Position numbers and translations under genes: made by a program. 64,000 nucleotides of DNA from Spirochaetia bacterium (lineage in GTDB: Bacteria > Spirochaetota > Spirochaetia > SZUA-6 > Bin103): the NCBI GenBank assembly GCA_965203055.1, contig OZ241863.1, positions 1,280,001 to 1,344,000 on the forward strand, written 5' to 3'. Position 1 is the first letter of the stretch. Every line of letters starts with the position of its first letter. Under the pieces are notes generated by a model. That model saw only the letters and a list, made by a program, of their open reading frames with translations, did not search any database and was not told where the DNA came from. This document shows, in pieces, positions 1,294 to 55,589 of the stretch.

Positions 1294-2145
1294 TTATCTG
1301 CCTGGCGTGTCGTTCTCGCCCCGCTCGCGGAGCGCCGCCTCAAGCGCGGCGATGCGCGCTTCCGCCTGGCGCTGAGCGGCTTCCGCCCGGCTCTGGGCGG
1401 CTTCCGCCTGACGGCGGGCGGCGGCCTCGTCGTGGAGCCGGGCTTCCGCCTGGCTCTGGGCGGCTTCCGTCTGGCGGCGGGCGGCGGCTTCCATCTGCCA
1501 CCGCTGCTCCGCCCGCAGCCGCCCCTGTTGTTCTTCGTCCGACGACAGCAGATAGCTCCGCGTTACCGGATCGTACAACCGCAGCCCCTCCGCCTCCTGC
1601 CGCACTTCCAGCCCCAGCACCTCGCTCTGCAGCCGCAGCGTCCCGTCCGCCAATTCCTCCTCCGGCAGCCGCTGGTACCTTCCCCCGATCAGCTCCAGCC
1701 CCTGCAACGGCGGCCGCAGATAGTCCCCCGTCGGGTCGTATTGCCAGTACTCCCGCACTCCCAACCGCCGGTACGTCTCTCGCTTCGGCCCCTGATCCTT
1801 GTCCCGGGTGCTCGCCGAGGTGACCTCCAGCACGAAGTCCGGCCCCTTCGGTTCCTGCCACAACAGGTAGGAGTGGCGCGGTCGATTCTCTGCGCCGAAC
1901 ACCACGAACACGTCCGGCGCTACCGACTTCCTGGTTCTCCTCTGGTAGTAGATCAGCAGGTCGGCCGCTACGAACACGTCGTCGCGGTGGGCGTAGTGGC
2001 GCCGCAGCGCGTCGAAGGCGTAGACCAGGGGAATGAGTTGAAAATAGCTTTCCGCCAAAGGCTCACCGTCCGAACTGGGGTACTCGATCTCGACCGGAGC
2101 AACCGGAGCGAGTGCCGTGCCTGGCGCGCCTGCCGCGTAAGCCAT
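1294..2145 (-). CDS. Uma2 (DUF820) family endonuclease with coiled-coil tail, copy A, 283 aa
   Basis: YPSSDGEPLAES, APDVFVV, PDFVLEVTSAST, GVREYWQYDP motifs; SD GGAGG before ATG 2145; RQAEAAQ heptad tail. Confidence 0.9.
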   Translation of the reverse strand: MAYAAGAPGTALAPVAPVEIEYPSSDGEPLAESYFQLIPLVYAFDALRRHYAHRDDVFVAADLLIYYQRRTRKSVAPDVFVVFGAENRPRHSYLLWQEPKGPDFVLEVTSASTRDKDQGPKRETYRRLGVREYWQYDPTGDYLRPPLQGLELIGGRYQRLPEEELADGTLRLQSEVLGLEVRQEAEGLRLYDPVTRSYLLSSDEEQQGRLRAEQRWQMEAAARRQTEAAQSQAEARLHDEAAARRQAEAAQSRAEAAQRQAEARIAALEAALRERGENDTPGR

Positions 2146-2337
2146 CCGTGATCCTCCGCCGCCCACCATACTCCGAACGCGCCGGGTACCGCTACCGGAC
2201 ATGCGCAGCGGGCAGGAAAACCCCATGCTACAGAGGCTGGTCGGAGCCGCGCCGACGCGGAGGCCGGAGTGGCCAGCGACAATCAAGATGAGAACGTAGC
2301 GGCTACCTCCGGCCGCCAAGTAGGGCCTTGAGCAGGC

Positions 2338-2368
2338 GGGCAGCCGGGCAGCCGGGCAGCCGGGCAGC
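2338..2368. repeat. GGGCAGCC tandem repeat, about 4 units
   Basis: Read directly in the spacer between the two Uma2 copies. Confidence 0.7.
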
Positions 2369-2431
2369 TTGCCGAGCTGGCTGAGGATGTGCCGGGCATC
2401 GCGCCGCAAGGGCGCGCGTAGAGTCCAGCGG

Positions 2432-3283
2432 TTATCTGCTTGGCGTGCCGTTCTCGCCTCGCTCGCGGAGCGCCGCCTCAAGCGCGGCGATGCGCGCTTC
2501 CGCCTGGCGCTGGGCGGCTTCCGCCTGGCGCTGAGCGGCTTCCGCTTGGCGCTGAGCGGCTTCCGCTTGGCGCTGAGCGGCTTCCGCCTGCCGGCGGGCG
2601 GCGGCCTCGTCATGGAGCCGGGCTTCCGCCTGGCGGCGGGCGGCGGCTTCCCGCAGCCGCCCCTGTTGTTCTTCGTCCGACGACAGCAGATAGCTCCGCG
2701 TTACCGGATCGTACAACCGCAGCCCCTCCGCCTCCTGCCGCACTTCCAGCCCCAGCACCTTGCTCTCCAGCCGCAGCGTCCCGTCCGCCAACTCCTCCTC
2801 CGGCAGCCGCTGGTACCGTCCCCCGATCAGCTCCAGCCCCTGCAACGGCGGCCGCAGATAGTCCCCCGTCGGGTCGAACTGCCAATACTCCCGCACTCCC
2901 AACTCCCGGTACGTCTCTCGCTTCGGCCCCTGATCCTTGTCCTGGGTGCTCGCCGAGGTGATCTCCAGCACGAAGTCCGGCCCCTTCGGTTCCTTCCACA
3001 ACTGGTAGGAGTGGCGCGGCCGATTCTCCGCTCCGAGCACCACGAACACGTCCGGCGCCACCGAATCCATGGTTCCCTCGTTGTAGTAGATCAGCATGTC
3101 GGCCACCACGAACACGTCGTCGCGGTGGGCGTAGTGGCGCCGTAGCGCGTCGAAGGCATAGACCAGGGGAATGAGTTGAAAATAGCTTTCCGCCAAAGGC
3201 TCACCGTCCGAACTGGGGTACTCGATCTCGACCGGAGCAACCGGAGCGAGAGCCGTGCCTGCCGCACCTGCCGCGTAAGCCAT
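2432..3283 (-). CDS. Uma2 (DUF820) family endonuclease with coiled-coil tail, copy B, 283 aa
   Basis: Near-identical tandem duplicate of 1294..2145 at offset 1138 bp, including about 65 bp of upstream sequence; 21-bp repeats encode RQAEAAQ. Confidence 0.9.
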   Translation of the reverse strand: MAYAAGAAGTALAPVAPVEIEYPSSDGEPLAESYFQLIPLVYAFDALRRHYAHRDDVFVVADMLIYYNEGTMDSVAPDVFVVLGAENRPRHSYQLWKEPKGPDFVLEITSASTQDKDQGPKRETYRELGVREYWQFDPTGDYLRPPLQGLELIGGRYQRLPEEELADGTLRLESKVLGLEVRQEAEGLRLYDPVTRSYLLSSDEEQQGRLREAAARRQAEARLHDEAAARRQAEAAQRQAEAAQRQAEAAQRQAEAAQRQAEARIAALEAALRERGENGTPSR

Positions 3284-3362
3284 CCGTGATCCTCCGCCGC
3301 CCACCATACTCCGAACGCGCCGGGTACCGCTACCGGACACGCGCAGCGGGCGCACTTCCTGT

Positions 3363-3423: not shown

Positions 3424-3488
3424 CAGGGCAGCCGCTTGGAAATGCGCCGCCGAGTCATGCCAGCAGGTGGCATATTCCGGGCCGGATA

Positions 3489-3525
3489 ACTTGACTCAAG
3501 TAGTTTCCATGATTATACTTATGTC
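3489..3525 (+). promoter_or_regulatory. Sigma70-type promoter for a leaderless HNH transcript, with a palindrome over the -35
   Basis: TTGACT(3491)-17 bp-TATACT(3514), then 6 nt to ATG 3526; ACTTGA-C-TCAAGT palindrome at 3489..3501; identical upstream of the copy at 55428. Confidence 0.75.
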
Positions 3526-4889
3526 ATGTACAATCATGCCTCCGACGAGGCCGTAACCACTACCGTATCCGCCCTCTCAGACGACCGCTTGCTGGAGCGG
3601 ACCAAGGAACTTTCCGGCATCGAACACCATCTCGAAGTGGTCGTGATCGACCACCTGCGCGAGATTCATAAGCGCCGCCTGTACCTGCGCCGCGGGTTTT
3701 CGAGCCTGTTCGATTACGCGGTGCGGGAGCTGGGTTACAGCGACGCCGCGGCGTGGCGTCGCATCAAGGCGATGCGGCTCTGCGCGGACGTCGAGGGCGT
3801 GCGGGAGCGCCTGCAGAATGGCTCGATGACGCTGAACGCGGCGGCGCAGTTGCAGCATGCGTTCGACCGGCAGGAGCGCAAGAAGGAACGGGCGGCGCGT
3901 AGCGCGCGGGGCGGGAGCGGGTTCGGGGCTGGCGCTCAGTCGCAGAACGGCTCGGCGCCGCCGCGGCCGGCGGAGCGGAAGCCGGAGCCGGTGCCGGTGC
4001 TGGACCCGGAGGCGCGGCGGGAGCTGGTGGAGCAGGCGTCCGGCAAGAGCAGCCGGGAGGTGATGCAGTTGCTGGCCGAGGTGGACCCGGAACTGGCGGC
4101 GCCGGCTGATCGTGTGCGGCCCCTGAGCGGCGGGCGCTGGGAGCTCAAGGCGGTGATCGACGATGAGTGCCGGCGGGGCTTGGAGCGGCTCCAGGGCCTC
4201 CTGTCCCACGTCGATCCGCACCTGACGATGGGGCAGCTCATGGGGCGGCTGGTGCGGGAAGGGCTCGACCGCCACGACCCGGCCCGACCGCCGCGCGGGC
4301 GGCGCGCCGCTTCGGCCAAAGGCGCCGAGCAAACTTCGGCTGCGAAGACGCAGGCGGCCTCGGTTCGCGGCGCTGCCTCGGCAGCGAAGCAGGAGGCGGG
4401 CGCGGACCGCGCCGCTCCTTCGGCGGCGAAAGTATCGGCTCAGGCGCCGGCGCCGCCGGGAGAGGAAGCCGCTGACCGCCCGGACACTTCGGCAGCGAAG
4501 CCGGCGACCGACACCACTTCGGCGCCGAAGACGCGGCGCCTCGGCCGACAGGCTGCGACGGCGGGCGCGGCGCGGGCTACGTCGCCGGCACGGACCGAAA
4601 CTTCGGCAGCGAAGGCCGGCGGCGCGACCGGCCGCGCCATCCCGGCGGCGGTCAAGCGCGAGGTGTGGCGGCGCGACCGGGGCCGCTGCCGCTACGTGGA
4701 CCGCGCCAGCGGGCGCCGCTGCGGCTCCCAACACCTGCTGCAGATCGATCACGTCGTGCCGTATGCTTGCGGCGGCGGCGCCGAGCCGAACAATCTCCGC
4801 CGCTGTGCGCCGCCCATCACCGCTACCGCCACGTCGGCGACGGATTCGGGCGCCCCGGCGAGGATCGTGAGGCGCCGGTAGATGGGTGA
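3526..4889 (+). pseudogene. DUF222-like/HNH endonuclease, copy 1, with a 1-nt frameshift in the HNH motif
   Basis: RAIPAAVKREVWRRDRGRCRY...RCGSQHLLQIDHVVPYACGG...NNL. One base is missing near 4800 relative to copy 4; LCAAHHRYRH continues in another frame to the stop at 4889. May be a read error. Confidence 0.8.
4333..4614 (+). repeat. Array of palindromic 15-bp repeats (ACTTCGGCNNCGAAG, encoding TSAAK/TSAPK) inside the HNH linker
   Basis: Copies at 4333, 4375, 4417, 4486, 4516 and 4600; start-to-start 42, 42, 69, 30, 84 nt, all in frame. Confidence 0.8.
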
Positions 4890-4997
4890 TCAATTTGGGA
4901 AATGCGCCCCAAGCCTCACCTCAGCGCGCTGTGGGCGGCGGCCGGCTGCTCAAACCCATCGCCGGAGGGGCGCGGCCGAAGGCCATCGCAGGCGCGC

Positions 4998-5033: not shown

Positions 5034-5441
5034 ATGGAGTCTGAATTCGATCCCTTGGCGGTGGAAGACGCCGCCTCGACCTTTGCGGCGCTCGGTTCGG
5101 AGCAGCGGCTGGCGGTCCTGAGCACCCTGGTGCGCGCCGGGCCGGCCGGCATCCCGAGCGGCACGCTGGGCGAACGCAGCGGGGTCACCGGCTCGACCCT
5201 GACCCACCACGTGCGCGTCCTGACCCAGGCCGGCCTGGTCCATCGCGTCAAGCGCGGCCGCTCGGTGATCTGCGCCGCGGCCGCCTATCCGAAGGTGCGG
5301 GCGCTTTCGGCCTACTTGCTGTCCGAATGCTGCACCGGCGATTCCGAATGCTGCGCCGCTGATTCCGAATGCTGCTGCGCCTCTCAGTCCGAGTGCTGCG
5401 CCGGCGGCGCGCTGCCCGCTACGCAAGCCGATCATGCCTGA
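5034..5441 (+). CDS. arsR: ArsR/SmtB family repressor with repeated Cys-Cys C-terminal tail
   Basis: FAALGSEQRLAVL...STLTHHVRVLTQAGLV winged HTH; tail SECCTGDSECCAADSECCCASQSECC; overlaps the permease start. Confidence 0.88.
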   Translation: MESEFDPLAVEDAASTFAALGSEQRLAVLSTLVRAGPAGIPSGTLGERSGVTGSTLTHHVRVLTQAGLVHRVKRGRSVICAAAAYPKVRALSAYLLSECCTGDSECCAADSECCCASQSECCAGGALPATQADHA

Positions 5442-6615
5442 ATCGACCGCCGCGCTCGGTGGGACCGCTTCGTTCCGCGGGACCGCCGCGGGGGCGTGCT
5501 GCCGAGACCGGCCCGGCGCCGCGTCTTCGCCGTCGCAGGCGCCGTCGCAGCCAAGTCCCCTGCGCCGCCGGTGGCGGGCGGCAGGTCATTGCCTGCGGCG
5601 GCTCGACGGGGCGTGGCTGGCGATCGGGCTGATCCCGGCCCTGCTCGCGCTGTTCGATCCCGGGCAGGCGCTGCCCGCCCTGCAGTTCGCCGGGGGAGCG
5701 ATCCTGCGGACCGGCGTGCTCATCGTCTGCGCGGTGCTGGCGGTGGCCTGGCTGAAGGCGGCCGACGCCGACCGGCTGCTGAGCCGGGCGTTCGCCGGAC
5801 CCGAGGTGCGGATGATCGCGCTGGGCGCGGTAGTGGGCGGGCTGGCGCCGTTCTGCTCCTGCGAGGTGATCCCCTTCATCGCCGCGCTGCTGGCGGTCGG
5901 GGCGCCGTTGTCGGCGGTGATGGCGTTCTGGCTCGCGTCGCCGTTGATGGATCCGGCGATGTTCCTGATTACCGCCGGCACCCTCGGCACCGGGTTCGCC
6001 GCCGCCAAGACGGTGGCGGCGGTGGCGCTCGGGCTGGCCGGCGGGCTGGTGGTGAAGGCGGGCGCCCGGAGCCCCGTGTTCGCCGCTCCGCTCCGGGCGC
6101 GGCCGGCCGCCGGCGCCTGCGCCGCCGCGTGCGGACCCGGCAGCGGCACCGGCGGCGGGTCCGATCCGCTGGCCGGCCGGCCGCAGTGGGCCTTCTGGCG
6201 CGAGCCGGCCCGCCGCCGGACGTTCCTCGGCACCGCGGCCGGGAACGCGCTGTTCCTGGGGAAGTGGCTGCTGTTGGCCTACCTGGTGGAGGCGCTGCTG
6301 CTGGAATACCTTCCCGCCGAGATGATCGCATCGGTCCTGGGCGGCGGCGGGCTGTGGCCGATCGTGCTGGGCGCGCTGGTCGGAGCGCCGGCCTACCTGA
6401 ACGGGTACGCCACCGTGCCGCTGGTCGAGGCGCTGCTGGCGCAGGGCATGTCGAACGGGGCGGCCATGTCGTTCGTCATCGCCGGCGGCGCCAGTTGCAT
6501 CCCGGCGGCGATCGCGGTCTGGGCGCTGGTCAAGCCGCGCGTCTTCGGCGCCTATCTCGGCATCGCGTTCGCCGGCTCCGTGGCCGCCGGCGTCGTCTGG
6601 AACGCGGTCGCCTGA
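5434..6615 (+). CDS. arsP: ArsP (DUF318) family permease
   Basis: Multi-TM protein with PFCSCEVIP, FWLASPLMDP and GAPAYLNG motifs; coupled to arsR. Confidence 0.8.
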   Translation: MPESTAALGGTASFRGTAAGACCRDRPGAASSPSQAPSQPSPLRRRWRAAGHCLRRLDGAWLAIGLIPALLALFDPGQALPALQFAGGAILRTGVLIVCAVLAVAWLKAADADRLLSRAFAGPEVRMIALGAVVGGLAPFCSCEVIPFIAALLAVGAPLSAVMAFWLASPLMDPAMFLITAGTLGTGFAAAKTVAAVALGLAGGLVVKAGARSPVFAAPLRARPAAGACAAACGPGSGTGGGSDPLAGRPQWAFWREPARRRTFLGTAAGNALFLGKWLLLAYLVEALLLEYLPAEMIASVLGGGGLWPIVLGALVGAPAYLNGYATVPLVEALLAQGMSNGAAMSFVIAGGASCIPAAIAVWALVKPRVFGAYLGIAFAGSVAAGVVWNAVA

Positions 6616-12619: not shown

Positions 12620-12949
12620 GCGTCGGGCGGTCCACGTAGCGGCAGCGGCCGCGGTCGCGCCGCCACACCTCGCGCTTGACCGCCGCCGGGATGGCGCTGC
12701 CGGTCACGCCGCCCGGCTTCGCTGGCGAAGTCCGGGTCCGCGGCGGCGCAGCAGGCGGCGCGCACGCCGCAGCCGGCCGGCCGAGGCGCTGCGTCTTCGG
12801 CGCCGAAGTTACGTCGCCCGCCGGCTCGCTGCCGAAGTGACCGGGCGGTCAGCGGCTTCGTCTCCCGGCTGCGCCGGCGCCTGAGCCGATACCTTCGCCG
12901 CCGAAGGAGCGGCGCTGTCCGCGCCAGCCTCCTGCTTCGCTGCCGAAGC
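12620..12949 (-). pseudogene. DUF222-like/HNH family fragment, copy 2
   Basis: ASAAKQEAGADSAAPSAAK...AIPAAVKREVWRRDRGRCRYVDR, nearly identical to copy 4; frameshifted and truncated at both ends. Confidence 0.85.
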
Positions 12950-23901: not shown

Positions 23902-25497
23902 ATGCGCAAGTTCAACACCGAAGGCCCCGTCGTCGCCGCGGATCACTACCTCGTCCCGCCGCTGCAGCGGGTGAATCTCGGCGAGGTGCTGGACCTGATA
24001 AGGGACAAGCGCTACTTCGTGCTGCACGCGCCCCGGCAGACCGGTAAGACGTCGCTCCTCCTGGCGCTGCGCGACCTGCTCAACAGCGGCGCCGAAGGCC
24101 GCTTCCGTTGCGTGTACGTCAACGTCGAAGGCGCGCAGGCGGCCCGGGAAGACGTGGCCCGCGCCATCCGCGCCGTCATGAGCCGCCTGGCCTCGCGGGC
24201 GCGGCGGCTGGGCGACGATTTCCCGGACCAGGTCTGGGCGGACCTGCTGGCGAAGTGCGGACCCGACGACGCTCTGGCCGAACTGCTGACGCAGTGGAGC
24301 GCGGCGGATGCGCGCCCCCTGGTGCTGTTGATCGACGAGATCGACGTGCTGATCGGCGACGCGCTGCTGGCGGTGTTGCGCCAGTTGCGGGCCGGCTACG
24401 ACGAACGCCCGTCCGGCTTTCCGCAGAGTATCGCGCTGTGCGGCGTGCGCGACGTGCGCGACTACCGCATTCACGCCGACTCGCGGAACGAGCCGATAGC
24501 CGGAGGCAGCCCGTTCAACGTCAAGGCGGCGTCGTTGCGCCTGGGGGACTTTACCGAGACCGAGGTGCGCGCCCTGCTCGCGCAGCACACCGCGGAGACC
24601 GGGCAGCCGTTCACGCCGGAGGCGCTCGCTGCGGTATGGAATCAGACCCGCGGGCAGCCGTGGCTGGTGAACGCGCTTTGCCGCCGCGCCTGCTTCGACG
24701 CCGAGGGCGGCCGCGACCGCGCGCGCGGCATCACGCGCGATGCCATTCTCGCCGCCCAGGAGCACCTGATCGTGAGCCGCCAGACTCACCTCGACCAGCT
24801 CGCCGACAAGCTGCAGGAAGCGCGCGTGCGGCGCGTGGTCGAACCGCTGCTGAGCGGCGCCGCCGAGAGCGCGTTCACGGCGCGCGACCTGGAGTACGTC
24901 CGCGACCTGGGTCTGGTCGCGCCGGAGGAAGCGCCGCGCATCGCCAACCCGATCTACGCGGAGGTGGTGCCGCGCGAGCTCACCAGCGCGGCGCAGGCGG
25001 GCCTGGTGCAGGAAACCGCCTGGTACGTCGATGGCGCGGGCCGGCTGGAAGTCGACAAGCTGCTCGCCAGCTTCCAGCAGTTCTTCCGCGAGCACTCCGA
25101 ACATTGGGTGGCGCGCTTCGACTACGCCGAAGCGGGGCCACAGCTCCTGTTGCAGGCGTTCCTGCAGCGCATCGTGAACGGCGGCGGCCGCATCGAGCGG
25201 GAGTATGGCCTGGGCCGCGGCCGCACCGACCTGCTCATCATCTGGCCGCGCGGCGGCGGCGCGCCGCCGCCTGCCGAGGACCGGTTCGTGGTCGAGTGCA
25301 AGGTGCTGCGCGGCAGCCTGCAGCGGACGGTGGCGGAGGGCCTGGAACAGACCGCCGGCTACCTGGACCGCTGCGCCGCGCAGGCCGGCCATCTGGTGAT
25401 CTTCGACCGTACCGCCGGGAAGCGCTGGGCAGACAAGCTGTTTCGCCGCGCGCAACGCTCCGGCGACGGACGCCCCATCACCATCTGGGGAATGTAG
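23902..25497 (+). CDS. AAA ATPase with C-terminal PD-(D/E)XK-like domain
   Basis: MRKFNTEGP, HAPRQTGKTS, LIDEID, REYGLGRGRTDL...VECK. Confidence 0.88.
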   Translation: MRKFNTEGPVVAADHYLVPPLQRVNLGEVLDLIRDKRYFVLHAPRQTGKTSLLLALRDLLNSGAEGRFRCVYVNVEGAQAAREDVARAIRAVMSRLASRARRLGDDFPDQVWADLLAKCGPDDALAELLTQWSAADARPLVLLIDEIDVLIGDALLAVLRQLRAGYDERPSGFPQSIALCGVRDVRDYRIHADSRNEPIAGGSPFNVKAASLRLGDFTETEVRALLAQHTAETGQPFTPEALAAVWNQTRGQPWLVNALCRRACFDAEGGRDRARGITRDAILAAQEHLIVSRQTHLDQLADKLQEARVRRVVEPLLSGAAESAFTARDLEYVRDLGLVAPEEAPRIANPIYAEVVPRELTSAAQAGLVQETAWYVDGAGRLEVDKLLASFQQFFREHSEHWVARFDYAEAGPQLLLQAFLQRIVNGGGRIEREYGLGRGRTDLLIIWPRGGGAPPPAEDRFVVECKVLRGSLQRTVAEGLEQTAGYLDRCAAQAGHLVIFDRTAGKRWADKLFRRAQRSGDGRPITIWGM

Positions 25498-39821: not shown

Positions 39822-41123
39822 TCATTCATTCCGGCGGGCGGCGGCGCGGGCCGCGTGGCGGTGACGGTAACGGTGATGCGCGGCGCACAGCAGACGGAGA
39901 TTATCGGGCTCGGCGCTGCCGCCGAGCGCATACGGGAAGACGTGATCGACCTGCAGCAGGTAGCGGGAGCCGCAGCGCCGCCCGCTGCCCCGGTCCACGT
40001 AGCTGCAGCGGCCCTGATCGCGCTCCCAGACCTGCCGCTTGACCGCGGCGGGGATAGCGCGGCCGGCTGCGCGCGGCTTCTCCGGCTTGACGGCGGCGGC
40101 ATCCGCCGGCCGCGCCGGCCGCTTCTCCGCCGGCGGGGCCGGCCGTTGCGCGTCGCACTCCGTCTTCGGCGCCGAAGTGCGGGTGGCGGCGGTCGGGGCC
40201 GGCCGTTTCGCTGGCGCGACGGCGGTGCGGGCCTCGTCCGCCCGCTCCATCGCCGGCGAATTCCCGGCACCCGCGGGCAGCGCAGCCGATTCGGCCCGTT
40301 TCTTCGGCGCCGAAGTTTGCGCGGCGTCCGCGGGCCGGTTGGCGGTGCGCCGGCCGCGCGGAGGCCGGGCCGGGTCATGGCGATCCAGCGCCTCCCGTAC
40401 CAACCGGCCCATGAGCTGGCCTGCCGTCAGGTGCGGATCGACGTGGGAAAGAAGGCCCTTGAGCCGCTCCAGCCCATGCCGGCAATCGTCGTCGATTACC
40501 GCCTTGATCTCCCACCGCCCCGCGCCCAGCGGGCGCATCCGCTCCGCCGGCGCCGCCAGCTCGGGAGCGGCGTTCGCCAACAATTCCTGCACCTGCCGCG
40601 TGCTCCTGCCGGCCGCCTGCTCCACCAGCGCCCGCCGCGCCGACGCGTCCAACATCGGCGCCATCGCCGGCCCCGGCGCTGGCCGCGGTTCCGCCGGCCG
40701 GGCCGGTCCCGATGTCGGCGCCGTCGAGCCGGCTCCCGCCCCTGCGCTGCGCCCCGCGCGCCCCCGCTTGCGCTCCTGCTGATCGAAGGCGTTCTGCAAC
40801 TGCGCCGCCGCGTTCAGCGTCAGCGAGCCGTCCCGCAGCCGCTCGCGCGCGCCTTCGACATCCGCGCACAACCGCATCGCCTTGATGCGCCGCCAGGCCG
40901 CCGCGTCGCTGTATCCCAGCTCGCGCACCGCGTAATCGAACAGGCTGGAGAAGCCCAGCGTCAGATACAGACGGCGCCGGTGAAGCTCGCGCAGATGATC
41001 GATGACCACCACCTCAAGTTCGTGTTCCAGCCCGGACAACTCCTTGATCCGCTCCAACAATCGCTGGTCGGAAAGAGCGGAGACCGTGGTCATGATCTCT
41101 ACGTTCGAGCTCGCATTATCCAT
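39822..41123 (-). CDS. DUF222-like/HNH endonuclease, copy 3 (intact, 433 aa)
   Basis: Same N-domain (GFSSLFDYAVRELGYSDAAAWRRIKAMR) and a complete HNH (CSY...RCGS...VDHVFPYALGG...NLRLLCAAHH). Confidence 0.88.
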   Translation of the reverse strand: MDNASSNVEIMTTVSALSDQRLLERIKELSGLEHELEVVVIDHLRELHRRRLYLTLGFSSLFDYAVRELGYSDAAAWRRIKAMRLCADVEGARERLRDGSLTLNAAAQLQNAFDQQERKRGRAGRSAGAGAGSTAPTSGPARPAEPRPAPGPAMAPMLDASARRALVEQAAGRSTRQVQELLANAAPELAAPAERMRPLGAGRWEIKAVIDDDCRHGLERLKGLLSHVDPHLTAGQLMGRLVREALDRHDPARPPRGRRTANRPADAAQTSAPKKRAESAALPAGAGNSPAMERADEARTAVAPAKRPAPTAATRTSAPKTECDAQRPAPPAEKRPARPADAAAVKPEKPRAAGRAIPAAVKRQVWERDQGRCSYVDRGSGRRCGSRYLLQVDHVFPYALGGSAEPDNLRLLCAAHHRYRHRHAARAAARRNE

Positions 41124-41158
41124 GAAGACAATATACTCAAGAGATGGATCAGAGGCAA
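41124..41158 (-). promoter_or_regulatory. Sigma70-type leaderless promoter of HNH copy 3
   Basis: TTGCCT-17 bp-TATATT, then 6 nt to ATG; same geometry as copies 1 and 4 despite different sequence. Confidence 0.65.
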
Positions 41159-41191
41159 GCTTCATTCGATAATAAACTTTGCGAAGTGTGG

Positions 41192-41620
41192 TCACCGTAG
41201 ATCATCTACGCCGATCTCGCTCGTCATCAATATCCGAAGAAGCGATCTGAACAGCTCTTCCAATAATGCGGCCTTACGCCGATGGAAGTCGACGGCTTTG
41301 CGCACCTTGCTCAGCGCTTGCACGATGGCCTGTTGTTCGCGTTTCGGAGGTTGCGGCACGTTGAGCGCGGCCAGCCTGCTGCAGGACAGATTCGGGATCG
41401 TGGTCCTGTTGCCGGCGCCTTCGAAGATGCCGAGCTGCGTGAACGCAGACTGCAGGAAGTACACGTAGAAGCGGGGCTCCACGTCTTCAATCGGGCGCAG
41501 TCGATGCAGGTGATTCTGGAACGACATCGTTTCCACTTCGCCGTTCCAGATCGCCGCGCGGCCGATCTCGCCGCCTTCGCACACCAGCAGGTCGCCGGGC
41601 CGCAGCAGCCCGCTGTGTGG
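41192..41620 (-). pseudogene. hsdS: Type I R-M HsdS C-terminal fragment
   Basis: [54 protein letters not shown]; no N-terminal half. Confidence 0.82.
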
Positions 41621-54559: not shown

Positions 54560-54645
54560 TTCCGGCGGCGACCGTAGGTAAGCGTCAGGCCGCTTGGCGG
54601 CCAAGCCCGGTCCCAGGGTAAGGTGACGTTTCTCGGCGATCTTGA

Positions 54646-55428
54646 TCACCGGTCTACCGGCTCCTGCCGATCCTCGCCGGGGCGGCCGAATCCGGCGCCG
54701 GCGTGGCGGTAGCGATGATGGGCGGCGCACAGCAGCCGGAGATTGTTCGGCTCGGCGCCGCCGCCGCAGGCATACGGCACGACGTGATCGATCTGCAGCA
54801 GGTGTTGGGAGCCGCAGCGGCGCCCGCTGATGCGGTCCACGTAGCGGCAGCGGCCCCGGTCGCGCCGCCACACCTCGCGCTTGACCGCCGCCGGGATGGC
54901 GCGGCCGGTCACGCCGCCCGGCTTCGCTGCCGAAGTTTCGGTCCGCGGCGGCGCAGCCGGCTGCGCGCACGCCGCAGCCGGCCGGCCGAGGCGCCGCGTC
55001 TTCGGCGCCGAAGTGGCGTCGGTCGCCGGCTTCGCTGCCGAAGTGTCCGGGCGGTCAGCGGCTTCGTCTCCCGGCTGCGCCGCCGCCTGAGCCGATGCCT
55101 TCGCCGCCGAAGGAGCGGCGCTGTCCGCGCCGGCCTCCTGCTTCGCTGCCGAGGCAGCGCCGCGAGCCGAGGCCGCCTGCGTCTTCGGCGCCGAAGTTTG
55201 CTCGGCGCCTTTGGCCGGCGCGGCGCGCCGCCCGCGCGGCGGTCGGGCCGGGTCGTGGCGGTCGAGCCCTTCCCGCACCAGCCGCCCCATGAGCTGCCCC
55301 AGGCGGCGCTTCTGAATCTCGCGCAGGTGGTCGATGCGGGAAAGTTCCTTGGTCCGCTCCAGCAAGCGGTCGTCTGAGAGGGCGGAAACGGTAGTGGTGA
55401 CGGCCCCGGCGGAAGCCTGATTGTTCAT
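54646..55428 (-). CDS. DUF222-like/HNH endonuclease, copy 4, with in-frame internal deletions (260 aa)
   Basis: KELSRI|DHLREIQKRR|LGQLMGRLV junctions relative to copy 1; repeat linker and complete HNH retained. Confidence 0.8.
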   Translation of the reverse strand: MNNQASAGAVTTTVSALSDDRLLERTKELSRIDHLREIQKRRLGQLMGRLVREGLDRHDPARPPRGRRAAPAKGAEQTSAPKTQAASARGAASAAKQEAGADSAAPSAAKASAQAAAQPGDEAADRPDTSAAKPATDATSAPKTRRLGRPAAACAQPAAPPRTETSAAKPGGVTGRAIPAAVKREVWRRDRGRCRYVDRISGRRCGSQHLLQIDHVVPYACGGGAEPNNLRLLCAAHHRYRHAGAGFGRPGEDRQEPVDR

Positions 55429-55465
55429 GACATAAGTATAATCATGGAAACTACTTGAGTCAAGT
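55429..55465 (-). promoter_or_regulatory. Sigma70-type leaderless promoter of HNH copy 4
   Basis: Identical to 3489..3525: TTGACT-17 bp-TATACT, then 6 nt to ATG. Confidence 0.75.
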
Positions 55466-55589
55466 TTCGTCGGGCTAGGAAACCGCAAGCGGCGTGATTC
55501 AGGGAGCATTTCCAAGCGACTGGACGTTCCATCAGATGCTACTGCCGAGAATGTCGCGGTCGGCAAAAGGGCGCGATCTGCCGGGTACC

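Follow-up and report, generated by a model that had tools for sequence, protein, structure and literature searches.

In-frame dyad units under nucleotide-level constraint in the linker-coding region of a multicopy HNH nuclease element from a Spirochaetia bacterium

In the 64,000-nucleotide stretch of Spirochaetia bacterium DNA analysed here (the window), a multicopy HNH nuclease gene carries short palindromic units that are translated in frame within the region encoding a disordered linker. We found that the constraint on these units acts on nucleotides and not on the peptide, and that this nucleotide-level constraint reaches across two genera. An initial annotation of the window had suggested selection on the nucleic acid as well as on a TSAAK peptide, and only the first of these proposals was borne out. 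As a tentative explanation, to which we give somewhat less than an even chance, the units may be dyad sites on double-stranded DNA that would be bound by a dimeric protein, most likely the product of the element itself.

The element is 1.47 kb long, and BLAST against the window's own genome returned 29 full-length copies and about 20 fragments. In its product, a helical N-domain is joined by a disordered linker to an HNH nuclease. Most of the full-length copies share sharp ends corresponding to positions 3429 and 4893 of the window and are 90-94% identical. Most genomic copies extend about 43 nt further to the left and about 64 nt further to the right, and the window copy is devoid of both extensions. 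Its sigma-70-type promoter (Table 1) has a score for which 0.1 sites are expected in shuffled sequences. The -10 hexamer ends 6 nt upstream of the ATG at 3526, a gap which suggests that a leaderless mRNA starts at this ATG. TATAYTT-type -10 hexamers at an equally short distance from the ATG recur in most of the diverged subfamilies. After position 4801, the window copy is missing one base that is present in the other 28 of the 29 aligned copies. The reading frame is thereby shifted before the last conserved His residues, and the C-terminal part of the HNH motif of the window copy is lost. The element family is present in 20 of the 23 genomes of the same bacterial family, with tens of matches in most of the 20 other family genomes that have a match.

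Copies 2 and 4 of the window (Table 1) are 89% and 93% identical to copy 1, respectively, and share its spacers, as had been noticed in the initial annotation. Copy 2 holds four units (at 12717, 12795, 12893 and 12935) and copy 4 holds six within 54922-55196. The identity of copy 4 is 93% over window positions 4229-4893 (54642-55301 in the copy) and 85% over 3429-3628. Copy 3, the protein of which is 69% identical and interrupted by no stops, likewise keeps the repeat with different spacers as originally described: two perfect units at 40164-40177 and 40302-40315 lie between unrelated spacers.

Table 1. Features of the HNH element and its units in the window
Feature	Position	Strand	Description	Basis
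Copy 1	3429..4893	+	1465-bp core (promoter, ORF and short tail)	BLAST against own genome
Promoter	3491..3519	+	Sigma-70-type, TTGACT-17-TATACT	10/12 positions scored
ORF	3526..4881	+	451 aa; helical N-region, disordered linker and HNH domain	ORF list
Linker-coding region	4291..4635	+	Residues ~256-370, Ala/Pro/Thr/Ser-rich, predicted disordered	Model and pN/pS
Unit 1	4333..4347	+	ACTTCGGCTGCGAAG; ACT TCG GCT GCG AAG (TSAAK); arms CTTCG/CGAAG perfect	
Unit 2	4375..4389	+	GCCTCGGCAGCGAAG; GCC TCG GCA GCG AAG (ASAAK); one arm mismatch (C at position 2)	
Unit 3	4417..4431	+	CCTTCGGCGGCGAAA; CCT TCG GCG GCG AAA (PSAAK); one arm mismatch (final A)	
Unit 4	4486..4500	+	ACTTCGGCAGCGAAG; ACT TCG GCA GCG AAG (TSAAK)	
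Unit 5	4516..4530	+	ACTTCGGCGCCGAAG; ACT TCG GCG CCG AAG (TSAPK)	
Unit 6	4600..4614	+	ACTTCGGCAGCGAAG; ACT TCG GCA GCG AAG (TSAAK); nearest to HNH domain	
Copy 2	12627..12949	-	Fragment (linker and HNH start)	89% identity to window 4375-4704
Copy 3	39822..41195	-	Diverged intact paralogue, 457-aa ORF	74.5% DNA identity
Copy 4	54642..55522	-	N-domain internally deleted, linker and HNH intact	BLAST

The intact paralogue P0001 matched the HNH family PF01844 over residues 398-436 with 28.0 bits (cut-off 21.4). The window ORF matched only HNH_5, at 17.3 bits where this model requires 27.5, and does not contain a complete HNH motif. HNH families of the PHROGs collection matched the element protein with an E value of 1.6e-9, and HNH domains were the only matches of its sequence profile against the PDB. 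In a PADLOC search for defence systems, the HNH part was matched, though only weakly. An assignment as RNA-guided IscB was considered and rejected, as NCBIfam model NF040563 scored 23.8 bits over the HNH part only with an equivalog cut-off of 175. The N-region had been called DUF222-like. Neither P0001 nor the window ORF gave a Pfam match to PF02720 (DUF222) at E<=1, and what stands of this claim is a lead from a language-model search, in which the nearest neighbour of the N-region was a DUF222-named cluster (score 0.94); 12% of the proteins in this cluster carry PF02720. A protein search with the N-region returned only close relatives carrying PF01844, none of which provided a name.

Structural comparisons gave two further leads. 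Residues 32-188 matched KorB (8qa8_A, Z 6.4, rmsd 3.3, 99 residues aligned), the ParB DNA-binding domain (6s6h_B, Z 6.2 at rmsd 7.8), KorB with its operator (1r71_A, Z 5.5) and Spo0J (1vz0_A, Z 5.2), all of them below the tool's guide value of Z 8. Residues 205-252 of the predicted model matched the ribbon-helix-helix of TraM (3omy_B) at Z 6.0, again below 8 (rmsd 2.1, 48 of 50 residues). Some ten other chains with this fold followed at Z 4.1-5.6, all below the guide value. Foldseek returned nothing at E<=0.001 for either model, with KorB/ParB-type matches at E about 2, and no KorB/ParB-type domain was matched in the PDB profile search. The resemblance of the region just upstream of the linker to a KorB/ParB helix-turn-helix and a ribbon-helix-helix thus weakly suggests that the N-region binds DNA, and we treat it as a lead only. 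The linker itself had a pLDDT below 50 for residues 265-368 in the P0001 model, and pN/pS in the annotated frame was 1.08 for the linker, 0.31 for the N-domain and 0.23 for the HNH domain.

The linker-coding region of the window copy contains six units with the consensus n-CT-YCG-NNNN-CG-RAG, exactly at the positions originally reported for them and all in the frame of the ORF (Table 1). As the initial annotation had it, the spacing keeps the frame: start-to-start distances are 42, 42, 69, 30 and 84, all multiples of 3. The CTTCG/CGAAG arms and a perfect 14-bp palindrome were also confirmed. The palindrome spans 4517-4530 in unit 5. Of 39 genomic linkers, 31 have an identical unit 5 and 30 an identical unit 6. 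Unit 3 ends with AAG in 32 of these linkers and with AAA in the window copy. The use of ACT for Thr in most units holds for only four of the six, the other two using GCC and CCT. When the window was searched with CTTCGGCNNCGAAG allowing at most one mismatch, 27 matches were obtained at 19 distinct sites, perfect palindromes being counted on both strands. In the shuffled window 0.71 matches are expected, with a maximum of 4. All of the 19 sites but one stray at 24693 lie within the four HNH copies.

Selection on the nucleotides became evident when the units were compared with their own codon context. A total of 165 strict units was counted in 67 diverged linkers. Upon redrawing of the codons with the peptides kept, only 2.4 units (domain codon usage) or 11.8 units (linker usage) are expected, and codon shuffling gave an expectation of 1.5. 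In the 73 units encoding TSxxK, ACT was used 70 times, TCG 72 times and AAG 73 times, whereas in the domains encoded by these genes 5.4% of the Thr codons are ACT. Genome-wide the figure is 2.6% (11.9% before TCG), and only two of 18 TSxxK motifs outside the element use ACT. The third-position T even outlasts replacement of the first residue: CCT encodes it in 14 of 18 PSxxK, GCT in 12 of 19 ASxxK and TCT in two of three SSxxK units. In 88 residue-conserved four-fold domain columns, the commonest third base has an average share of 0.68, and T has a mean of 4.9% and a maximum of 33%. Within the window's own genome, the minor-allele fraction was 0.0175 in the unit arms, 0.062 in the linker spacers and 0.063 at third positions of the N-domain. 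The synonymous positions of the units are therefore not free to vary. A TSAAK/TSAPK peptide motif with codons frozen by descent would account for a motif that is in frame in nearly all homologues (all but one of 246 units lie in one reading frame of the translated linker). However, the peptide alternates between S/P/A, A/T/P/V, A/P/S/E and K/E while the third codon positions stay fixed, and both the expected unit numbers and the rarity of ACT elsewhere contradict such a motif.

The same applies to the idea of a repeat-spacer array that delivers guides. It draws on the fact that the gene encodes a nuclease, the HNH part of which is touched by the IscB model, albeit with a score far under the cut-off. 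The units are only 14-15 nt long, they are translated, and their predicted occupancy as RNA hairpins is low. Nor are all spacers unique, as had been assumed: window positions 4336-4430 form a 42-nt tandem repeat of 2.3 copies with 77% matches, and another linker, L051, contains an 81-nt tandem array of 2.9 copies. This shows that, as an array grows, a unit and its spacer are duplicated together in tandem. The spacers are thus diverged duplicates; with a pN/pS of 1.08-1.14 they evolve neutrally. They matched none of 50,697 phage records and gave only partial chance matches of 15-28 nt in the own genome outside the element. Taken together, a peptide motif or a guide array is largely refuted as an explanation, and we assign to it hardly any probability.

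Tandem growth, together with the dozens of copies per genome, would also suit units that are functionless and are kept alike by duplication and by gene conversion among copies, i.e. by concerted evolution. Array L051 argues against this. Unit and spacer are of the same age within the array, and yet its three 81-nt copies agree at 45 of 45 compared positions in the units and at 141 of 198 in the spacers. In addition, the same 14-mer is found across subfamilies whose domains are 45-65% identical to P0001 and whose synonymous sites are randomised, the unit centres are position-specific rather than homogenised, and conversion tracts limited to 14 nt appear implausible. We consider concerted evolution without function a quite improbable account. 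On inspection for helical phasing, 58 of 178 unit spacings were multiples of 21, with 25 expected. We base no conclusion on this, since common ancestry and the tandem periods account for the peaks at 42, 81, 84 and 114.

The units are symmetrical in a way that goes beyond a single conserved word. Counting of five-nucleotide arms followed by N4 and the reverse complement in 68 linkers yielded 88 cases for CTTCG, 28 for CTCCG and six for the next best arm. The second arm type, CTCCG...CGGAG, converts TSxxK to TPxxE, and perfect palindromes are formed both by TSAPK (centre GCGC) and by TSPAK (centre CCGG). Arms and centres thus show changes that preserve symmetry. The symmetry extends outwards as well: T at position 15 was found in 38 of 123 units with A at position 0 but in only three of 44 others. 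At position 3, the 168 strict units have T (99) or C (69); position 12 is A in 129 and C7 is kept in 164 of them.

Such a dyad around a 4-nt centre could also be a short hairpin in mRNA, antisense RNA or single-stranded DNA, with pairing rather than the duplex sequence being selected and with roles as a structure signal for processing, stability, pausing, nicking or priming. The exchange of CTTCG for CTCCG arms is a double, pair-preserving change, the enrichment of the A0.T15 pair points in the same direction, and isolated units are predicted to fold as RNA with -4.8 to -7.7 kcal/mol. Furthermore, G12 accompanies C3 in seven of 16 de-replicated units and T3 in five of 63. This association of positions 3 and 12 is not predicted by a homodimer site alone, and base pairing fits it better. 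On the other hand, 14 of 83 de-replicated units have a mismatch at the central pair, 3.12 (C.A in eight, G.A in four, T.C in one and C.C in one), with fixed flanking bases, and five further units have T.G. The numbers of T.G and C.A, five and eight, reveal no strand asymmetry, so that mismatches of the G.U type favour neither strand. Pair-preserving changes are almost absent from positions 1, 2, 4, 5, 10, 11, 13 and 14, which looks like sequence reading rather than pairing alone. C7 is conserved despite its location in the loop, and the loops belong to none of the stable tetraloop classes known to us. In linker context, the mean predicted stem probability was low, with 0.22 for T:A units and 0.35 for C:G units in the sense strand and 0.19 and 0.23, respectively, in the antisense strand. 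Free hairpins at the units are therefore weakly supported, and we regard selection for pairing as unlikely, though it is not a reading to be neglected.

Another possibility arises from the fact that the conserved positions of the units coincide exactly with the second and third codon positions in the annotated frame, a pattern that an overlapping frame would also give. In the sense +1 or the codon-aligned antisense frame, the conserved letters would be the first two codon positions, and the unit would be read as L-R-(R/Q)-R-(S/R), CTN CGN CGN CGN AGN being palindromic by construction. Those positions that vary (3, 6, 9 and 12) coincide exactly with the wobble positions there, conservation of C7 and R8 would be accounted for by the start of a codon, and pN/pS for the linker is 0.66 (+1) and 0.67 (aligned antisense) compared with 1.08 in the annotated frame. 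However, stops occur between the first and the last unit in 30 of 59 linkers (+1) and in 14 of 59 (aligned antisense). Moreover, wobble is not free: position 3 is restricted to T and C although CTG is the expected Leu codon, and the prevailing A at position 12 gives the rare CGA. Excess variation at first codon positions is expected anyway in an Ala/Pro/Thr/Ser linker, in which all codons are NCN, and the link between A0 and T15 is not predicted. An overlapping coding frame accordingly has, in our judgement, very little probability.

The motif is nearly confined to the element. Within the own genome, 215 of 254 CTTCG-N4-CGAAG sites lie in element copies. The 15-mer ACTTCGGCGCCGAAG was found in 20 of the 23 genomes of the family and was absent from all 17 genomes that were searched in the order's other families. 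The number of strict units per linker is one to five in diverged linkers and six in the window copy. Two of 68 linkers have no strict unit, and neither has a Ca. Eisenbacteria homologue from outside the family (43% identity over the C-terminal part), which indicates that the units are not indispensable to this kind of protein. Unit-like sites at the element ends or by the promoter were not consistent across subfamilies. A candidate operator, a unit-like word just upstream of the -35 hexamer matching at 11 of 14 positions in the window family, was rejected for lack of conservation in other subfamilies.

This distribution bears on the question of what reads the units. A host factor (recombinase, methyltransferase or restriction system, nucleoid protein) or the enzyme of another element could be the reader, or the units could be recombination hot spots that reshuffle linkers. 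The demonstrated nucleotide constraint would suit any such reader, the number of units in the arrays varies through duplication or deletion of unit-bounded blocks, and the REP13E12 repeats of Mycobacterium tuberculosis host prophage phiRv1 with its attB site according to the review PMC9317374. Recombination or cleavage may take place at the units. With the motif so nearly confined to the element, however, a host factor would have no other targets, and the 39 sites outside the element vary in centre and context. We therefore see a reader from outside the element as rather improbable.

Given these findings, we prefer the proposal that the units would be bound as duplex DNA by the element's own protein. 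The linker stretch has a dual role, encoding an unconstrained tether predicted to be disordered and carrying a nucleic-acid signal, a 14-16-nt dyad, (A)CT-YCG-NCRN-CG-RAG(T), held by selection on nucleotides, with CTTCGGCGCCGAAG as the putative duplex target. As the element is almost all coding, cis sites must fall inside the ORF, and the disordered linker would probably be the cheapest place for them. Once bound, the protein could recognise its own copy of the element or regulate it; autoregulation and cis-tethering of the HNH domain are examples. A more specific version would be an as yet undescribed mode of spread, in which the protein loads on the linker palindromes or their single-stranded hairpins, HNH is positioned to nick and copying of the element starts; it seems to us doubtful. 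Were this version correct, a mobile element would have hidden its cis-acting sites in the codons of its own disordered linker. Irrespective of the reader, the units provide a clean natural example of dual coding, with a nearly free protein reading and a constrained nucleic-acid reading. They call for caution in annotation, as low-complexity linkers of mobile elements can hide cis elements. The 14-mer and the adjoining candidate DNA-binding region also offer a testable handle on HNH-only repeat elements.

Signals written over codons and a palindrome inside the gene of its binding protein are known already. We found no description of an array of dyad sites that lies specifically where a selfish nuclease gene encodes a disordered linker and whose every letter is preserved between genera while the codons around it drift. 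Literature searches on REP13E12 and DUF222-HNH proteins led to the DIVE paper and its preprint and revealed no linker dyads, the exact 14-mer as text was found in no paper, and searches on palindromic in-frame repeats and coding-region cis sites found nothing describing these units. CRISPR arrays are non-coding and have repeats of 23 nt or more. The units resemble them, as well as REP/BIME sequences, in being short, partly palindromic repeats with variable sequence in between. A CRISPR array was rejected since the units are shorter and translated and the spacers stem from duplication and matched nothing foreign, and dispersed palindromes of the REP/BIME or MITE type were rejected since most sites lie inside copies of one element rather than being dispersed extragenically. 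Ribbon-helix-helix repressors (TraM-sbmA, CopG, NikR, omega) are small dimers whose operators are short and either symmetric or repeated, with several sites frequently following one another. The likeness of residues 205-252 to the TraM N-domain is structural only and concerns a predicted model with Z below 8; a difference is that the operators of these repressors are intergenic while the units described here are translated. PARCEL repeats are tandem 25-residue amphipathic domains (PMC2996958). They share with the units their location in ORFs, dyad symmetry of the DNA, a tie to mobile DNA and variable number, but PARCELs are selected as protein whereas our units comprise 14 nt (five codons) and their peptide is not conserved. 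Membership in this class was rejected, with unconstrained spacers and a linker predicted to be disordered.

Another parallel is offered by the parB (spo0J) gene of Bacillus subtilis, the coding strand of which includes a parS palindrome (PMC4333373). In both cases a palindrome lies within a coding strand. That of parB is bound by the dimeric helix-turn-helix protein which the gene encodes, such palindromes, KorB operators among them, measuring 13-16 bp, and the protein of the element may likewise bind its units. KorB and ParB were the best fold matches of residues 32-188, with Z values of 5.2-6.4 that lie below the guide and from which we do not claim membership. In contrast to the units, parS in parB is a single site, without an array and without placement in a disordered linker, and ParB contains a CTPase domain and acts in partition, nothing of which was seen in the element.

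In overall architecture the element is most similar to REP13E12, a repeat of about 1.4 kb with several copies per genome and a helical N-region followed by an HNH nuclease. To our knowledge, neither an explanation of how REP13E12/DUF222-HNH repeats spread nor a description of conserved dyads in the linkers of REP13E12 has been published. The REP13E12 repeat genes of M. tuberculosis go back to Gordon et al. (1999), as cited in PMC10589994. Both are multicopy repeats of similar length (1465 bp for the core described here) with the same order of helical N-region and HNH domain. The proximity of the N-region to a DUF222-named cluster adds to the likeness; differences are the missing Pfam match to DUF222 and the copy number, which here amounts to 29 full copies and about 20 fragments in the window's own genome. 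If the dyads prove to be the sites at which the element's own protein loads to nick and start copying, they would provide the first mechanistic lead for the spread of DUF222-HNH (REP13E12-like) repeats.

Six in-frame units begin at window positions 4333, 4375, 4417, 4486, 4516 and 4600, just as the initial annotation had described, inside the linker-coding DNA of a multicopy HNH nuclease gene. A search of the 64-kb window with CTTCGGCNNCGAAG, allowing at most one mismatch, returned 27 matches at 19 distinct sites, with 0.71 expected from a shuffled control, and 18 of the 19 fell in four HNH copies. Genome-wide, 215 of the 254 CTTCG-N4-CGAAG sites lay inside element copies; arms of the same base composition as CTTCG gave a mean of 13.5 sites in the whole genome.

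The genome (4.56 Mb, 68.8% G+C) carries 29 full-length copies of the element at 90-94% identity plus about 20 fragments, and 13 of the 29 have an uninterrupted frame of 447-461 aa between the usual ATG and stop codon. One base that the 28 other aligned copies have after 4801 is missing from the window copy, which puts the last part of its HNH motif out of frame. The intact 454-aa paralogue P0001, used as reference protein, matched the Pfam HNH model with 28 bits (cut-off 21.4), and its N-region had no Pfam match. The promoter, TTGACT-17-TATACT, ends 6 nt upstream of the ATG, and a similar -10 recurs equally close to the ATG in diverged subfamilies, which suggests from sequence that the transcript would be leaderless. 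The spreading unit is thus a promoter plus one gene and little else.

Features of the element and its surroundings in window coordinates
Feature	Position	Strand	Remark
ORF, 451 aa	3526..4881	+	ORF call
1465-bp repeat around the 451-aa ORF	3429-4893		ends common to most of the 29 full-length genomic copies
Copy 1	3429-4893	+	451-aa ORF, HNH end frame-shifted
Copy 2	12627-12949		fragment
Copy 3	39822-41195		diverged paralogue, intact
Copy 4	about 54642-55522		internal deletion
Upstream ORF, longer	1294-2613	-	C-terminal AEAAQRQ-type repeats
Upstream ORF, shorter	2432-3355	-	Uma2 (putative restriction endonuclease), PF05685, E 3.7e-18; C-terminal AEAAQRQ-type repeats
Antisense ORF, 438 aa	3577-4893	-	codon-aligned through almost the whole gene
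Winged-helix regulator	5034-5438	+	HTH_20, E 1.3e-8; Cys-rich tail with four SECC repeats
Predicted ArsP-type permease	5434-6612	+	PF03773, E 1.4e-33
Unit-like word just upstream of -35	3470-3490		11-nt palindrome, arms TCCGG/CCGGA
Word of about 12 nt (GGAAATGCGCC and neighbouring bases)	3437-3449; 4898-4909		near left end of core; just beyond right end

Several features at and beyond the element borders were also recorded. The unit-like word upstream of the -35 recurs at the same place in the homologous locus L003 and, read by eye, matches 11 of 14 unit positions in most copies of the window's own family; it is not conserved in other subfamilies. Most genomic copies extend beyond the core by about 43 shared nt on the left and about 64 on the right, the latter with a short GGGACT-type microsatellite whose length varies; the window copy lacks both extensions. 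The two ORFs directly upstream are overlapping paralogues, and pieces of the region they occupy recur beside other HNH copies in the genome. The regulator and permease directly downstream look like a metal- or metalloid-responsive pair.

Of 23 further genomes from the bacterial family, 20 contain relatives of the protein, and most of these 20 give tens of matches; in other families of the order, relatives turned up in 2 of 17 genomes, and there at no better than E around 1e-4. This wide family made a test of constraint on the units possible. From 78 loci, 75 linkers were extracted; seven linkers nearest to that of the window's family (L032, L098-L103) were set aside and the remaining 68, alignable at the units only, were analysed, one out-of-frame linker being left out of codon-based counts. 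The best tblastn segments of these loci had 44-65% protein identity to P0001. Among 5-nt arms facing their reverse complement across 4 nt, CTTCG had 88 occurrences and CTCCG 28, the next in rank reaching 6, and all but one of the CTTCG units started at codon position 2. For codon counts, units were redefined by peptide alone to avoid circularity. The 73 TSxxK units used ACT in 70, TCG in 72 and AAG in 73 cases, and the 29 TPxxE units ACT in 26, CCG in 29 and GAG in 28. By comparison, ACT makes up 5.4% of 717 Thr codons and TCG 28% of Ser codons in the folded domains that these genes encode; across 1518 further long ORFs of the genome, ACT accounts for 2.6% of Thr codons, 11.9% before TCG, and for 2 of 18 when the peptide is TSxxK. 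The third-base T was retained even where the first residue is not Thr (CCT in 14/18 PSxxK, GCT in 12/19 ASxxK, TCT in 2/3 SSxxK). When peptides were kept and codons redrawn, 2.4 strict units were expected at domain usage and 11.8 at the linkers' own usage, units included; codon shuffling left 1.5, and 165 were observed. As a yardstick of saturation, 88 residue-conserved four-fold columns from the domains of 30 homologues had a mean share of 0.68 for the commonest third base, with T averaging 4.9% and never exceeding 33%. These counts, redraws and yardstick values together make it clear that synonymous positions in the units do not vary freely. The proposal that selection acts on the nucleic acid is thus supported, and we regard it as very probable that the units are kept by such selection.

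Variation among the 29 copies in the window's genome was compared by region. The minor-allele fraction was 0.0175 in the unit arms and 0.020 at the units' third codon positions, against 0.062 in the rest of the linker, where the usual codon-position order is lost, and 0.063 at N-domain third positions. In the annotated frame pN/pS was 0.31 for the N-domain, 0.23 for HNH and 1.08 for the linker (1.14 with units masked). Tandem duplication of a unit together with its spacer enlarges the arrays, as in the window (4336-4430, 42-nt period, 2.3 copies) and in the homologous locus L051 (81-nt period, 2.9 copies), whose three tandem copies are identical at 45/45 compared unit positions and at 141/198 spacer positions. 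The idea that hairpins are processed into guides found no support: the spacers are duplicates drifting neutrally, the linker had no match in 50,697 phage records, and its five spacers had only 15-28-nt partial matches in the genome outside the element.

In an overlapping frame, sense +1 or codon-aligned antisense, every unit would translate to L-R-(R/Q)-R-(S/R). Base conservation falls precisely on the second and third positions of the annotated codons, a run of such overlapping-frame codons is automatically a palindrome, and linker pN/pS is about 0.66 in both frames. However, the stretch from the first unit to the last contains stops in 30 of 59 linkers in the +1 frame and in 14 of 59 in the antisense frame, the supposed wobble bases are biased towards rare codons, and first positions should in any case be the most variable in an Ala/Pro/Thr/Ser linker, where every codon is NCN; we consider this explanation very improbable. 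In the window the 438-aa antisense ORF reads the units as L-R-(R/C)-R-S; a codon-aligned antisense frame is typically open in high-G+C genes. Functionless concerted evolution, an alternative frame, a peptide-only constraint and a guide array share what probability the readings below leave over.

The consensus of 168 strict units is (A)-C-T-Y-C-G-N-C-R-N-C-G-R-A-G, numbered from 0 at the first base of the first codon, and its dyad symmetry shows in several ways. TSAPK (centre GCGC) and TSPAK (centre CCGG) are both encoded by perfect palindromes, and a double change that preserves pairing, to CTCCG...CGGAG, replaces Ser...Lys by Pro...Glu. With the preceding A, 38 of 123 units are followed by T, without it 3 of 44, against a background of 8.7% T at that codon position. 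After linkers were collapsed to 28 clusters, the central pair 3.12 was T.A in 57, C.A in 8, C.G in 7, T.G in 5, G.A in 4 and other in 2 units. Units mismatched there retain their flanking bases, stems are predicted at low probability within the linker (sense 0.22 and 0.35, antisense 0.19 and 0.23, for two paired classes), wobble-type mismatches favour neither strand, and C7, a loop position in a hairpin, is kept in 164 of 168 units. For these reasons we read the units as sequence recognition at a symmetric site rather than as free hairpins. Hairpins acting in RNA or single-stranded DNA are kept alive by the association of G12 with C3 (7/16 units, against 5/63 with T3), but pairing at 3.12 is not strictly kept and stem probabilities reach only 0.19-0.35, and we judge such hairpins unlikely.

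With respect to a reader of these sites, the N-region is confidently helical in the P0001 model, whereas pLDDT stays below 50 in the linker (residues 265-368); folded alone, the N-region gave a mean pLDDT of 80. Its best structural comparisons were with KorB (8qa8_A, Z 6.4, rmsd 3.3, 99 residues aligned), a ParB DNA-binding domain (6s6h_B, Z 6.2 but rmsd 7.8), KorB with operator (Z 5.5) and Spo0J (Z 5.2); Foldseek ranked ParB, Noc and SopB at the top at E of about 2. Residues 205-252 resembled the TraM ribbon-helix-helix domain (Z 6.0, rmsd 2.1, 48/50 residues), followed by about ten more ribbon-helix-helix chains. All these matches fall below the tools' reliability guides and are a lead, not an assignment. 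Dimers of the ParB/KorB and ribbon-helix-helix fold types bind DNA at symmetric or repeated sites. We tentatively propose that the units are duplex DNA sites for a dimeric binder, with the element's own N-region as the likeliest candidate. As the element is nearly all ORF, the linker would be the cheapest place for cis sites, and binding could mediate autoregulation, tether the nuclease in cis or form a step in copying. We judge use of the units by a host factor or another element unlikely too, slightly more so than the hairpins.

Eight aligned sequences have Tyr instead of Trp at P0001 position 205, with Gly or Ala, not Trp, at position 77. All seven sequences with CTCCG...CGGAG (C.G) units are among them; the eighth, L079, has no C3-type unit. 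Since the Tyr205 sequences form one clade, a possible reader-site link between residues 77/205 and the C.G unit type is only a lead.

In gene architecture and copy behaviour the element matches DUF222-HNH or REP13E12-type repeats, but P0001 gave no Pfam DUF222 match. In the literature listings searched, and in the passages cited here, we came across no account of dyad units conserved in such genes' linkers. PARCELs share dyad symmetry inside ORF repeats; they differ in being, according to the passage cited, 25-residue domains selected as protein (PMC2996958). In Bacillus subtilis parB, as the cited passage describes, a parS palindrome lies in the gene's own coding strand (PMC4333373), an arrangement of a site within its own gene like that proposed for the units.
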